Shown here one piece after another: positions 44,244 through 48,354 of a DNA stretch of 64,000 nucleotides. Origin of the DNA: Eubacteriales bacterium (GTDB lineage Bacteria; Bacillota; Clostridia; Oscillospirales; CAG-272); NCBI GenBank assembly GCA_045594705.1, contig JAZNZB010000038.1, positions 20,234 to 84,233 on the forward strand, written 5' to 3'. Under the pieces are notes generated by a model. The model saw only the letters and a program-made list of their open reading frames with translations. It was not told the origin of the DNA and did not search any database. Position 1 is the stretch's first letter. Every line of letters starts with the position of its first letter. The translations under genes and the position numbers were made by a program.

Positions 44244-45659
44244 TCAGCGTTTGAGTCTTCCCTTCAGCATCTCGGGCAGCATTTTGAGCATGGAGAGCAG
44301 CGCGGGCGCATTCAACCCCACTACCGCAACAGCCAAAAGACCGATGTACAGCTGCCAGAGATACGGCTCGGTCATCATAATGACCGTCATGCCGCCAAGC
44401 AGCACGGTATTGATTGCAATGCGCGGGATCTGCAAATTGAAGCGGATAAAACGATGCATGGTAGCCGCACGCAGTACAAAGACAGCAAAATAGCTGACAA
44501 ACGTTGCAACCGACGCACCGACCGCACCCCACGACGGGATCCAGATCAGATTGAGCACGATATTGAAAATCGCGCCCACCATGGAGGTATAAAACGACAC
44601 CATGGTCTTTTTCTTGGTGAAATATGCGGTTGCCAGGAACGAGTCAAATGAGGTGAATACCGTGGCAAGCACCAGAATCGGCACGTACAGCCATGCCTGA
44701 TAATAAGAATCGGCAAACAGCAGCACCGAGGCCACCTTGGCAAATGCAATCAAGCCTGCCCCGCCCACAAACACAATGGCCACGTAATAGCGGAACACCT
44801 TGCCAAAGAAATCGGCGCATGCATCGGGGTCATCCGACTCCTTGACAGCGGACAGTCTCCACGCTTCGTTGAAGACCGAGACCATATACGTCAGCAGCGT
44901 GGGGATCTTATAGGCAGCCGCGTAAAGGCCGTTCTCTGCATCCGAGCGCATGCGCGCGACCAGATAGCGGTCGGAAACTCCCGTGATCCACCAGAATACG
45001 GTGGTGGGGATCAGCGGCAAGGAAAAGCGCAGCATCTCACCCATGATTTTTTTGGAGATCTTTTTGAACGAAAAGGCGCGCCACAGTCTGCAATACACAA
45101 TCAGCACAAGCGTGGTGACAAAATCGGCACACACGACGCTGAGCACGTATCCCTCGATCTTCATTCCAAAGCCCAAAAGGAACAACAGATTGAAGCCAAT
45201 ATTGAGTGCGGTATTCAGAATGCCCTGAAAAGCAAAGGTTTTTGTGCGACCGATAGCACAAACGTACTGCGCGCAAACCGAATGAAAATTGGAGCACAGC
45301 ACGAAAATGACGATCAGCCAAACGTAGGATGCGAAGTATTCCAGCAGCAAAAGCAGCGGCGAGAGCAGCAAAAAGCCTGCCGAGCTGATGGCCAAAATGG
45401 CCATGCCGCTTGAGAAAAAGGCTTCCTTATCCCCTTCCTTGGCTGCTGCATTGCGGAACAGTCCCTCGGCAATGCCAAGGCAAGCCAACGGGATGAGCAG
45501 ATTGGCAAGCTGCGTGATCAGATCCGCGGTGGAATACTGCGCCTCGGACAGGCATGCGGTATACAGCGGCATCATCAAAAAGACCAGCATTTTGGATACA
45601 AATTTTCCCACTGTAAAGATCACGGTATTTCCAAACAGTCTCTTGATTCTGGCGTCCAC
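44244..45659 (-). CDS. MOP-superfamily oligosaccharide/polysaccharide flippase (Wzx-like)
   Basis: 471 aa, GTG start with GGAGG RBS, about 12-14 hydrophobic segments. N-terminus ...LFGNTVIFTVGKFVSKMLVFLMMPLYTACLSEAQYSTADL is typical of polysaccharide-biosynthesis flippases. Confidence 0.8.
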   Translation of the reverse strand: MDARIKRLFGNTVIFTVGKFVSKMLVFLMMPLYTACLSEAQYSTADLITQLANLLIPLACLGIAEGLFRNAAAKEGDKEAFFSSGMAILAISSAGFLLLSPLLLLLEYFASYVWLIVIFVLCSNFHSVCAQYVCAIGRTKTFAFQGILNTALNIGFNLLFLLGFGMKIEGYVLSVVCADFVTTLVLIVYCRLWRAFSFKKISKKIMGEMLRFSLPLIPTTVFWWITGVSDRYLVARMRSDAENGLYAAAYKIPTLLTYMVSVFNEAWRLSAVKESDDPDACADFFGKVFRYYVAIVFVGGAGLIAFAKVASVLLFADSYYQAWLYVPILVLATVFTSFDSFLATAYFTKKKTMVSFYTSMVGAIFNIVLNLIWIPSWGAVGASVATFVSYFAVFVLRAATMHRFIRFNLQIPRIAINTVLLGGMTVIMMTEPYLWQLYIGLLAVAVVGLNAPALLSMLKMLPEMLKGRLKR

Positions 45660-45693: not shown

Positions 45694-45722
45694 ATTTTAT
45701 CACTTTGCCGCTTGGGTGTCAA
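45694..45722 (-). promoter_or_regulatory. sigma-A type promoter (TTGACA-N17-TAAAAT)
   Basis: Minus strand: TTGACA cccaagcggcaaagtga TAAAAT, upstream of the flippase gene. Confidence 0.5.
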
Positions 45723-45740: not shown

Positions 45741-47552
45741 TCAAACATTTTCCATCCAAAATCCGTTTGCCGGCGGTAGGGGGGCGAGAAGAATTCCCGA
45801 AAGTCCTTGCAAATCAAGCGTGACCCATCCTTCACCGTCGGTCTGTAGACGATTGGGCTCGCTTTGCTCATTCGTAGCAAAGATCTGCTCATAATACGGA
45901 TATCTGCCGCCAAGCTGCGCGCGTACGCCCTGTGCCTCTTTCAAGCTGAAATTGATCAGCACGCAAACCTCCCTGCCCGCCCGGTCGAAGCGTCGGAAGG
46001 CGATCACACCCTCGGGTGCATTATCAAGCATCACTGCCAAGATCCCATCCTTGCCAAAATCACATTCCCACAGCGCAGGGATTTGCCCATACAGTCGGTT
46101 GAGTGCCCTTACATATTGGTACAATTCCTTATGAAAATCCAGTTCCCTTACAAACCATTCCATACTACCGCCCACCTGCCAGGCTGTCGACTGCCCGATC
46201 TCATTGCCCATAAAGATCAGCTTTTTTCCAGGCAGACAGGTCATATAGAAAAACAGCAGCCGCATAGATGCAAATTTTTGCACTCTGTCACCCGCCAAGG
46301 CTTCAAGCACAGACGTAGCGCGCTCTGCAATCAACTCGGATGACAGTGCAAGAATGCAGTCCTCAGCGAATACATATCCGGCAGGCTCGCGCCAGGCCTG
46401 TCTGCCAAGGCGAATATCCGTCGGCATGGCAAAGCAATCAAGCATGGCTCTCTCGACGCGCGGATCGATGACCAGATCGTAGCCCAGTCCTCCCCATGCG
46501 GCATCCGTGCTCAGCCCCCGGTGACCCGCACCGCGCAAAAGCAGCAATGCATCAGGCATCCCTTTATGCACGTGAGCCGCAAGTCCTCTGACAAAGTCTC
46601 CCGTTGATCGGTCGGGACTCATCCCTTCTGCATTGATATACAAGCCGTCCAGATGATATTCGCGCAGCCAGAACATAACCGCAGAATACAGCAGAGTGGT
46701 AGCGTAAGGGTCTGCATAAGCAAATCGAGCCCTGCCGTCCCGCATGGATGCATACGCGCCCGCGCCGTCAAAGTTGACAAGACCGCCCACGTGCGTGCCG
46801 GGGGCACGGCACTCCAGCTCCATGATCACACCGATCTGCTCCTTGTGCATGCGATCCACAAAGTATGCAAAATCATCCTGCGTGCCAAGCACACTGTCGG
46901 GAGCGAAATATGACACGATGCCCTCTTTGCCTGCATTCTGACGGCAAACACTGTGCAAAAGCAGGTGCGTATATCCCATATCGGCCAAATATTGCGCGAG
47001 CAGATCGGCTATGATGCGGTAATTGGCGTCCACACCCACGGCATCCCGATCCAACCAGCCAAGAAGCTCTGCTTCATAGATGTTCATGGGATATGCATAC
47101 TTTTCGTGTTCACTGTGATGCATGGCTCTTGCGGAAAGATAATCACGGTCGTGCCAGACGTAATGCTGCTCGGTGCTGATATAAGATGCGCCTTCCCCGC
47201 TGCACTCACTCGCACGGGCATACGGATCGGCCTTATAATGCCTGCCATCTCCCGTTTCTACAAGATACTTGTACCGCAAGCCCTCGGGGCAGATTCCCGC
47301 GCGCATGCAAAGCTCCCATACACCACTTTGTGGGATGCGCTGCATGGGCACGGGCTCCCAGCCATCCCACTCCCCAACCAGACTGACCCGATCCGCTCCG
47401 GGCGCAGCTACGCGAAATACGTAGCTCCAATCCGGCCTGTCAAGCAACCTGTGCACGCCAAAATAGCGATAGGCATGCGTTCCGTTTCCCTTTTGCAGAT
47501 AATAGTCGGCAAGAGAGGCCGCGCCGCTCGATGCCTGCGTTTCATAGATCAT
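45741..47552 (-). CDS. GlgB-like GH13 protein (CBM48 plus alpha-amylase barrel) with substituted catalytic motifs; probable pseudoenzyme
   Basis: 603-aa intact ORF. It is collinear with 1,4-alpha-glucan branching enzymes (YRYFGVHRL, FRVAAPGADRVSLVGEWDGW, PGKKLIFMGNEIGQSTAW). GH13 regions I-IV read ELECRA, LYINAE, LLLRGAG and ALSSELI in place of DWVPGH, LRVDAV, MAEEST and LSHDEV. Confidence 0.8.
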   Translation of the reverse strand: MIYETQASSGAASLADYYLQKGNGTHAYRYFGVHRLLDRPDWSYVFRVAAPGADRVSLVGEWDGWEPVPMQRIPQSGVWELCMRAGICPEGLRYKYLVETGDGRHYKADPYARASECSGEGASYISTEQHYVWHDRDYLSARAMHHSEHEKYAYPMNIYEAELLGWLDRDAVGVDANYRIIADLLAQYLADMGYTHLLLHSVCRQNAGKEGIVSYFAPDSVLGTQDDFAYFVDRMHKEQIGVIMELECRAPGTHVGGLVNFDGAGAYASMRDGRARFAYADPYATTLLYSAVMFWLREYHLDGLYINAEGMSPDRSTGDFVRGLAAHVHKGMPDALLLLRGAGHRGLSTDAAWGGLGYDLVIDPRVERAMLDCFAMPTDIRLGRQAWREPAGYVFAEDCILALSSELIAERATSVLEALAGDRVQKFASMRLLFFYMTCLPGKKLIFMGNEIGQSTAWQVGGSMEWFVRELDFHKELYQYVRALNRLYGQIPALWECDFGKDGILAVMLDNAPEGVIAFRRFDRAGREVCVLINFSLKEAQGVRAQLGGRYPYYEQIFATNEQSEPNRLQTDGEGWVTLDLQGLSGILLAPLPPANGFWMENV

Positions 47553-47606
47553 AAAAAACCTCCGTGCGGTAATACGGTAAGTATTGCCCGTGCACGGAGG
47601 TTTATT
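47553..47606 (-). terminator. Strong Rho-independent terminator after the YebC-family gene; contains the RBS of the GlgB-like gene
   Basis: Minus-strand RNA: AACCUCCGUGC...GCACGGAGGUU (11-bp stem, extendable through GGCAAUAC/GUAUUACC) followed by UUUUUU and then the AUG at 47552. Confidence 0.8.
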
Positions 47607-47619
47607 TCAATCTTTCTGA

Positions 47620-48354
47620 TTACTCGTCCTGGTTTTCCCAGTTGTGGAATACGGAGAGAACGTCGTCGTCCTCCTCCAGCTTTTCAAGCAGCAGGTTCAT
47701 GAACTTCTTATCGTCGTCGGTGGTCAGCTCAACGTAGGTGGAAGGAATCATGGTCTGCTCTGCGGAGAGCACGTTGTAGCCCTTAGCCTTGATGTCCTCT
47801 GCGACTGCGAAAACGTCGGCAGACTCGGTGTAAACCTCGAATACCTCGCCCTCGGCTGCAAAGTCCTCGGCACCTGCCTCCATAGCATCCTCCATCAGCT
47901 TATCCTCGTCAATGTCGCCATCCTCGTTGTCAATGACGATCAGGCCTTTTTCGGAGAACATGAAGCTGACGCTGCCCGAGGTACCAAGGTTACCGTGGTA
48001 CTTGGAGAAAGCGGCACGCACGTTGCCTGCGGTTCTGTTTCTGTTATCGGTAGCAGCTCTGACAATGACTGCCACGCCTGCGGGACCGTAGCCCTCGTAG
48101 GTAATCTCTTCAAAGTTGTCGCCGCCTGCGCCAAGTGCCTTTTCGATACTTCTCTTGATGTTATCGTTGGGCACGTTGTTTGCCTTTGCCTTGGCGATCA
48201 GATCTCTGAGCTTGGAGTTGTTGTTGGGGTCGCCGCCGCCAGCCTTGACGGCTACAGCGATTTCCTTACCGATCTGGGTAAAAATCTTACCCTTAGCGGC
48301 GTCGGTCTTTTCCTTCTTGTGCTTGATGTTGGCCCATTTGCTATGTCCGGACAT
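47620..48354 (-). CDS. yebC: YebC/PmpR-family DNA-binding transcriptional regulator
   Basis: 244 aa. MSGHSKWANIKHKKEKTDAAKGKIFTQIGKEI... is the invariant family N-terminus. Confidence 0.95.
   Translation of the reverse strand: MSGHSKWANIKHKKEKTDAAKGKIFTQIGKEIAVAVKAGGGDPNNNSKLRDLIAKAKANNVPNDNIKRSIEKALGAGGDNFEEITYEGYGPAGVAVIVRAATDNRNRTAGNVRAAFSKYHGNLGTSGSVSFMFSEKGLIVIDNEDGDIDEDKLMEDAMEAGAEDFAAEGEVFEVYTESADVFAVAEDIKAKGYNVLSAEQTMIPSTYVELTTDDDKKFMNLLLEKLEEDDDVLSVFHNWENQDE

Follow-up and report, generated by a model that had tools for sequence, protein, structure and literature searches.

A GlgB paralogue predicted to be catalytically dead is kept by selection at a housekeeping locus in a genus of gut Clostridia

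In the genome of a Eubacteriales bacterium of the CAG-272 lineage, a stretch of 64,000 nucleotides (assembly GCA_045594705.1, contig JAZNZB010000038.1, positions 20,234 to 84,233; the window hereafter) carries on its minus strand a gene, pGlgB, for a homologue of the glycogen branching enzyme GlgB, flanked upstream by a yebC/TACO1-family gene and downstream by a flippase gene (Table 1). An earlier note on this DNA had called it a likely pseudoenzyme: an intact, GlgB-like open reading frame of 603 codons that includes the CBM48 region and in which all four catalytic motifs of glycoside hydrolase family 13 (GH13) are replaced; a part in glucan binding or in regulation, without catalysis, was considered plausible. 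The frame is indeed uninterrupted, with no internal stop, and its match to CBM_48 (PF02922) scores 45.7 bits against a Pfam cut-off of 22.4; in the same search the Alpha-amylase match is marginal and that to Alpha-amylase_C is gone. The three NCBIfam equivalog models for GlgB align with the protein end to end, and it falls below the curated cut-off of each (315 bits of a required 577 at best, then 289 of 741 and 246 of 464). An AlphaFold2 (AF2) model was obtained with a mean predicted local distance difference test score (pLDDT) of 90.1 and a predicted template modelling score (pTM) of 0.91, and Foldseek superposes it on the GH13_9 branching enzymes 8zqa, 3k1d, 6joy and 1m7x with a template modelling (TM) score of 0.87. 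By AF2, Foldseek and Pfam together, the GlgB succession of CBM48, (beta/alpha)8 barrel and C-terminal beta domain is present. In sequence the protein is most like bacterial GH13_9 enzymes (E 1e-54 to 1e-46), eukaryotic branching enzymes being at 1e-12 or worse, and the closest solved structure by HMMER is Cyanothece BE1 (PDB 5gr3 and others; E 2e-54). Identity is 25-28% to the solved branching enzymes and 33% to the canonical GlgB encoded in the same genome.

Table 1. Features of the pGlgB locus, in window coordinates, with two further genes given by their positions in loci L050 and L049
Feature	Position	Strand	Remarks
pGlgB, GlgB paralogue predicted to be catalytically dead, 603 amino acids	45741..47552	minus	stop codon 45741-45743
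N-terminal helix and CBM48, residues 1-135	47148..47552	minus	most conserved part of the family; W65, W79, motifs QxGxGTHAY and CPEGLRYKY
Former catalytic (beta/alpha)8 domain, residues 136-500	46053..47147	minus	
C-terminal beta domain, residues 501-603	45744..46052	minus	family-specific invariant GGRYPYY (548-554) and GFW (597-599)
GH13 region I equivalent ELECRA, residues 245-250	46803..46820	minus	canonical DWVPGH
GH13 region II equivalent LYINAE, residues 304-309	46626..46643	minus	canonical LRVDAV
GH13 region III equivalent LLRGAG, residues 338-343	46524..46541	minus	canonical IAEEST
GH13 region IV equivalent LSSELI, residues 403-408	46329..46346	minus	canonical xSHDEV
yebC intrinsic terminator	47553..47600	minus	hairpin CCTCCGTGC...GCACGGAGG, then T6, directly before the pGlgB ATG
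yebC/TACO1-family gene	47620..48354	minus	upstream neighbour of pGlgB
MOP-superfamily (Polysacc_synt) flippase gene	44244..45659	minus	downstream neighbour of pGlgB
Flippase promoter TTGACA-17-TG-TAAAAT	45694..45722	minus	near-consensus, extended -10; between pGlgB stop and flippase start
Broken-triad glgB* in locus L050	7001-8794		
Broken-triad glgB* in locus L049	7454-9379		

The case for lost catalysis rests on the eight hallmark residues of GH13, Y-D-H-R-D-E-H-D, which in an alignment of 104 sequences with canonical GlgBs read E-E-A-Y-N-R-S-E in pGlgB. The stacking Tyr is Glu210. Region I has Glu245 for Asp and Ala250 for His, the latter varying within the family, next to an invariant Cys248; in region II, Arg has become Tyr305 and the nucleophile Asp has become Asn307 (N, D, C, H or R among relatives). 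The acid/base Glu of region III is Arg340, invariant in 29 of 29 family sequences, and region IV has Ser405 for His and Glu406 for the transition-state Asp (mostly Ala elsewhere in the family). All 29 members have substituted hallmarks throughout, save that eight carry Asp at the nucleophile position; four of the positions have been newly fixed (Glu245, Tyr305, Arg340 and Ser405), and the other four, the nucleophile among them, vary. An HMMER alignment to Cyanothece BE1 sets the pGlgB motifs opposite DWVPGH, RVDAV, AEES and SHDE, its flanks GGLGF and PGKKxxFMxxEFGQ align cleanly, and its register is that of the 104-sequence alignment. Each motif quoted in the earlier note thus lies where it was said to lie, and its argument from clean flanks, that this is no artefact of alignment, stands. 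In the AF2 model the substituted residues occupy the C-terminal ends of beta3, beta4, beta5 and beta7, which are the places of the catalytic residues. Two checks that the note had proposed, a formal alignment and a structure model, therefore agree in finding the GlgB fold and no catalytic residues at or near the expected positions; Glu397 and Glu451 are kept from the canonical enzyme. Because the nucleophile, the acid/base and the transition-state stabiliser are gone together with five other hallmarks, pGlgB is predicted to be unable to carry out GH13 double displacement. As read from sequence and model, it keeps the fold of GlgB and has lost the chemistry.

Relatives were sought among 5.8 billion proteins and, in a second and exhaustive HMMER pass, among 1.84 billion representatives at 50% identity. 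The first search gave 28 full-length relatives at 53-97% identity, so that the family comprises about 29 sequence clusters. CBM48 is the sole Pfam match in all 28, and those that bear a name are called 'hypothetical protein'. A sharp gap in identity lies below them, with canonical GlgBs at 36% or less. In the exhaustive pass the whole family forms one cluster at 806 bits, the next match is at 319 bits, and no intermediates between the family and canonical GlgB occur among the representatives searched. The family sequences come from metagenome-assembled genomes that are labelled Clostridia or Eubacteriales bacterium and derive from the gut of sheep, cattle and yak. Among GTDB species representatives, 11 of the 16 that belong to the window's own genus carry pGlgB, free of internal stops in all 11; it was not found in 45 genomes of sister genera and families, where the matches, including the better-scoring ones in the sister genera (G025, G022 and G034), are canonical GlgBs. 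A maximum-likelihood tree unites the family in one clade with a Shimodaira-Hasegawa-like approximate likelihood ratio (SH-aLRT) support of 100. The stem that leads to this clade is about 1.3-1.5 substitutions per site long, and with such a stem and long-branch attraction the family's deep origin among GlgBs is not placeable. Horizontal transfer was considered and is not supported: G+C content, overall and at third codon positions (GC3), is native, synteny is fixed and the gene tree broadly tracks the species tree.

The ratio of nonsynonymous to synonymous substitution rates (dN/dS, or omega), estimated by the method of Nei and Gojobori (NG86), ranges from 0.07 to 0.26 over 34 pairwise comparisons in all. 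Orthologues compared with the window copy give 0.07-0.21, comparable to the 0.05-0.14 of recN and the flippase gene, and the closest, unsaturated pair differs by 81 synonymous and 22 nonsynonymous changes (dS 0.23, omega 0.07). This test, which had been suggested in the earlier note, reveals purifying selection. A decaying gene is excluded by the intact frames, by omega values well under 1 and by the 151 positions that are near-invariant among family members: pGlgB is kept by purifying selection. The pseudoenzyme reading accordingly gains support on each of its parts, namely clear homology to an active family, loss of the catalytic residues and continued constraint. The protein nonetheless evolves faster than the active paralogue. 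In the same seven genomes canonical GlgB is 82-97% identical with dN/dS of 0.05-0.11, as against 56-94% and 0.08-0.26 for pGlgB, and over the same genome pairs dN of pGlgB is 2.2-8.4 times that of canonical GlgB (median 3.6); dS, too, is raised two- to threefold. Identity of pGlgB is 53-72% in comparisons that give 84-100% for YebC, ArgS and the flippase.

How this constraint is distributed along the protein is telling as to which part works. Relative to canonical GlgB in the same genome pairs, pGlgB has diverged 1.4-fold in the N-terminus, 1.2-fold in CBM48, 4.5- to 6.8-fold in the A domain and 2.9-fold in the C domain. The most conserved windows of 15 residues fall at 13-38, 46-62, 107-123 and 182-198, the first three of them in the N-terminus and CBM48. 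The usual pattern is thus inverted: in active GlgB the barrel is most conserved, whereas in pGlgB CBM48 is most conserved and the barrel is among the least. Within CBM48, the family and canonical GlgBs taken together have W65 without exception and W79 in at least 90% of sequences, and 24 further positions are common to pGlgB and canonical GlgB; the two tryptophans are assigned as a glucan-binding pair from the literature (PMC13172542) and by homology, not from a ligand-bound structure. That pGlgB is non-catalytic, with the N-terminus and CBM48 as its principal functional module, is the best-supported reading as to function.

The remainder of the protein has not merely been released from constraint. 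The family has 56 near-invariant residues of its own, and 13 of these stand at sites where the residue of canonical GlgB is conserved to 96% or more. Among the 13 are Leu198 and Tyr283 (each for Glu), Gly208 (for Trp), Cys248 (Pro), His254 (Asp), Asp281 (Arg), Arg340 (the acid/base Glu), Asp363 (Asn) and Arg384 (His), as well as G252, L287 and M311. Invariant Cys248, His254, Asp281, Arg340, Asp363, Arg384 and Ser404 lie at or beside the former active-site strand ends (beta3, beta5 and beta7), as placed by the DSSP string of the model. The C domain has in turn gained two invariant aromatic motifs, GGRYPYY and the C-terminal GFW. From the 56 family-specific residues, 13 of them at highly conserved sites, it is concluded that the catalytic domain has been re-fixed and has not simply drifted.

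The gene order around pGlgB is everywhere xseB-ispA-DUF212-tlyA-nadK-argR-recN-argS-yebC-[pGlgB]-MOP flippase-rplS. As the earlier note had stated, glg genes are not nearby: glgC, glgA and glgP are absent from the window, and in this genome they accompany a canonical glgB on contig C89, in a complete glgB-glgC-glgD-glgA-glgP operon. The search for a second glgB that the note had recommended therefore succeeds, and the C89 protein scores 845-847 bits in NCBIfam with all eight hallmark residues present. Active and dead copies thus lie in one genome, only the former with the glycogen genes.

Four members of the genus have lost the gene altogether. In G001, G006, G010 and G014 (loci L035, L034, L033 and L036, respectively) yebC and its terminator directly adjoin the flippase promoter, and pGlgB is nowhere in the genome. 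On a genus tree built from ArgS, YebC, the flippase and RecN these species are scattered among carriers, so that four changes are needed, at least three of them forced by well-supported branches; pGlgB is therefore ancestral to the genus and has been lost repeatedly. Members of the genus share a conserved flippase promoter. The flippase itself has no specific identity in NCBIfam, with no match to SpoVB and only weak ones to MATE and HfsF. A partnership between pGlgB and the flippase, on the analogy of rBAT/4F2hc, was entertained and rejected, since the flippase has its own strong promoter and keeps the same site and promoter in the four members that lack pGlgB.

On the upstream side of the gene, terminator and translation signals overlap. 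Only 67 nucleotides separate yebC from pGlgB, and in this gap a hairpin of -26.8 kcal/mol is followed by T6 and then by the ATG, and the 3' arm of the hairpin ends in the GGAGG Shine-Dalgarno sequence of pGlgB. A search of the gap for a sigma-70-like promoter gave none. At each of the 14 loci compared, pGlgB is preceded by the hairpin, the T-run and the ATG, even where the upstream gene is a different one, and compensatory changes occur at some stem pairs. Genomes without pGlgB use the same hairpin as the yebC terminator; the GGAGG-T6-ATG context is kept where the gene is kept, and among the four genomes that lack it the context has eroded in all except G014, which is without the ATG. Some members of the genus, the window not among them, have an insert between yebC and the hairpin, which in L023 (6661-7797) and L024 (552-1688) encodes a LigT-like 2',5' RNA ligase, an open reading frame of 47 amino acids and a DUF559 protein; L011, L013 and L022 have in common with this insert the sequence directly upstream of the hairpin.

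Codon usage was compared with that of the rest of the genome. The effective number of codons (Nc) of pGlgB is 50, where the genome median is 44 and its neighbours and canonical glgB have 33-46, indicating weak codon bias, while its GC3 of 0.586 is native (mean 0.636 and standard deviation 0.078 for the genome's long open reading frames). Weak codon bias and a sequestered Shine-Dalgarno sequence together suggest low expression. Low expression is also taken to explain the raised synonymous divergence of pGlgB, which fits the weak bias and, over one and the same set of genome pairs, is two to three times as high as in the genes beside it (in one instance 1.34 as against 0.14-0.67). To judge from these signals, pGlgB would be made at a low level by read-through of the yebC terminator, with its translation start masked by default.

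Loss of the catalytic triad is not confined to this family. Among the 149 nearest representatives at 50% identity in public metagenomes (P0123-P0271), aligned to a hidden Markov model (HMM) of canonical GlgB, the Asp-Glu-Asp triad is broken in 101, and the tree shows broken-triad GlgB sequences emerging at four or more separate points. P0124 is the product of the leading gene in a glgB*-glgC-glgD-glgA operon, where the asterisk denotes the broken triad. In G035, of a sister genus, a glgB*-C-D-A-P operon begins with the broken-triad gene; a canonical GlgB was not detected in the genome, which is 97% complete with 8% contamination. P0124, the G035 copy with the P0127 type, P0057/P0078/P0081, P0038/P0043 and P0046 are all full-length and come mostly from gut Clostridia metagenomes. 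The P0124 and G035 copies fill the glgB slot of their operons, whereas pGlgB, at its housekeeping locus, is additional to a canonical GlgB; the pGlgB family also differs from the others in its more complete loss of catalytic residues, the most complete of all, and in forming a separate clade on a long branch.

It is proposed, with a probability judged to be about even, that pGlgB is a selection-kept dead GlgB paralogue which most likely serves as a non-catalytic, alpha-glucan-binding accessory protein of low abundance. Its working module would consist of the N-terminal and CBM48 region, the new aromatic-rich motifs of the C domain and the rebuilt former active-site pocket. With these it would bind the cell's own glycogen, the product of the intact glgBCDAP operon elsewhere in the genome, and would modulate the structure of the polymer or the access of enzymes to it, much as plant CBM48 proteins and dead starch-enzyme paralogues do. 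The suggestion of glucan binding is strengthened by the concentration of selection on the N-terminus and CBM48 and by the retention of both CBM48 tryptophans, and the dead copies of P0124 and G035 within glycogen operons connect such proteins with glucan metabolism. That the gene has been lost repeatedly and has weak expression signals further points to a function that is accessory and not core.

Several observations weigh against this proposal. The neighbours of pGlgB are housekeeping genes and include none for glucan metabolism, and losses on at least three occasions within the genus mark the gene as dispensable. The N-terminus and CBM48 themselves hold 15 of the invariant residues peculiar to the family, which could mark a new interface, unrelated to glucan. 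In addition, residues of the active-site cleft, as marked by the mutant chains of Cyanothece BE1, are not conserved in the HMMER alignment, Y500/D501 being Ala-Trp, W655 Val and L541 Gly in pGlgB.

In a different explanation, possible though on balance unlikely, pGlgB has a role unrelated to glucan, as a protein-protein scaffold or a sensor of a small ligand, for which the rebuilt pocket and new surfaces of CBM48, the N-terminus and the C-terminus would serve. Re-fixation of the catalytic domain is what such a role would call for, and the invariant motifs QxGxGTHAY and CPEGLRYKY are as new to the family as those of the C domain; the housekeeping locus fits, and a precedent exists in the plant class III branching enzyme MKIP1, now a subunit of a splicing complex (PMC13172542). 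Yet no partner gene travels with pGlgB, since yebC and the flippase gene, the latter on its own promoter, persist unchanged after its loss. Moreover, residues common with canonical GlgB are denser in CBM48 (0.25 per residue) than are family-specific ones (0.10 per residue).

A more ambitious synthesis extends the glucan-binding proposal and is regarded as doubtful: dead GlgBs would form a widespread and so far unrecognised class of bacterial glycogen-granule proteins, and pGlgB, its pocket (C248, H254, D281, R340, D363 and R384) rebuilt for a ligand or for catalysis, would be a sensor or modifier of alpha-glucan made on terminator read-through. More improbable still is a new enzyme acting on a sugar or sugar phosphate by way of Cys248/His254, or of Asp281/Asp363 with Arg340. 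The seven invariant residues around the former strand ends, and the retained Glu397 and Glu451, would supply the groups for such an activity, but the A domain as a whole diverges 4.5-6.8 times faster than that of the active paralogue, which is unusual for a domain that houses a catalytic site, and half of the eight hallmark positions, including that of the former nucleophile, vary freely. No GH13 chemistry is known to proceed without the Asp nucleophile. Together, the re-fixed pocket and the new invariant surfaces leave real room for a non-glucan role, and less for new catalysis.

That pGlgB is a functionless remnant heading for decay, intact by chance, is very improbable and already contradicted by the selection data. 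Fast evolution against better-conserved neighbours, three or more losses, the want of an obvious promoter and a buried ribosome-binding site are all what decay would produce; but 29 cluster representatives are intact and full-length, dN/dS is like that of recN and the flippase gene, the near-invariant positions are many, and the start context has been preserved in the genomes that keep the gene and mostly eroded in those that lost it. The chance that pGlgB is still a branching enzyme with shifted catalytic residues is negligible, for all that the fold is intact and eight members have Asp at the nucleophile position, because the window protein itself has Asn there, an Arg that never varies stands in for the acid/base, neither His is left, the stacking Tyr has gone along with the Arg of region II and the Asp of region IV, and the scores against GlgB HMMs are about half of the cut-offs; a working GH13 transferase is excluded with the nucleophile, the acid/base and the supporting residues gone.

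The significance of pGlgB lies first in its being a clean case, in which an active and a dead copy occur in one genome, selection is concentrated on CBM48 and at least three losses provide natural knock-outs. Pseudoenzymes derived from storage-glucan enzymes are well established in plants, and a counterpart in bacterial glycogen metabolism was not found in the literature searched: no publication on a catalytically dead bacterial GlgB came to light there, and a comprehensive review of prokaryotic alpha-glucan enzymes from 2024 mentions neither a catalytically inactive GlgB nor a pseudoenzyme. Dead GlgBs may also bear on the form in which gut Clostridia store glucan, as branched glycogen or as granulose-like polymers. 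The interest of pGlgB would be the greater if dead copies shape that polymer or if they possess a rebuilt binding pocket. A practical consequence concerns annotation, in which broken-triad GlgB genes are labelled 'hypothetical' or, wrongly, 'GlgB'.

Among known systems the nearest is bacterial GlgB itself (GH13_9; E. coli 1M7X/4LPC, Rhodothermus 6JOY/8ZQA, M. tuberculosis 3K1D and Cyanothece BE1 5GQU), which pGlgB resembles in architecture and fold and with which it has in common the structural motifs GYTH, HxDG, GGLG and PGKKxxFMGxE. Unlike GlgB, pGlgB has all eight hallmarks replaced, a gene outside the glg operon, an inverted pattern of constraint and new invariant motifs in its C domain.

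It is established that plants organise starch metabolism with the help of dead starch-enzyme paralogues, among them BAM4/9, ISA2, MKIP1 and the PTST proteins. MKIP1 (AtBE1) is a class III branching enzyme with a broken triad and about 30% identity to active enzymes, which is constrained and inactive and has acquired a new function, its CBM48 having become a protein-protein surface (PMC13172542). It is like pGlgB in being a branching-enzyme homologue that is under constraint with its triad broken. It differs in being eukaryotic and essential, in its extra MSR domain and in working with MatK in intron splicing, whereas pGlgB is bacterial, of the GH13_9 type, without insertions and dispensable. 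Its bacterial best matches and the lack of an inserted domain at 603 residues place pGlgB outside the eukaryotic class III clade. The two have independent origins, and the likeness is one of analogy only. Closer to the function proposed here are ISA2, the dead subunit of isoamylase, and the CBM48 proteins PTST1-3/FLO6, which bind glucan, target or modulate active enzymes, or do both (PMC6243121, PMC12510319). Like pGlgB these are dead or enzyme-less proteins with a CBM48; unlike it they are eukaryotic and have known partners, in ISA1, GBSS and SS4.

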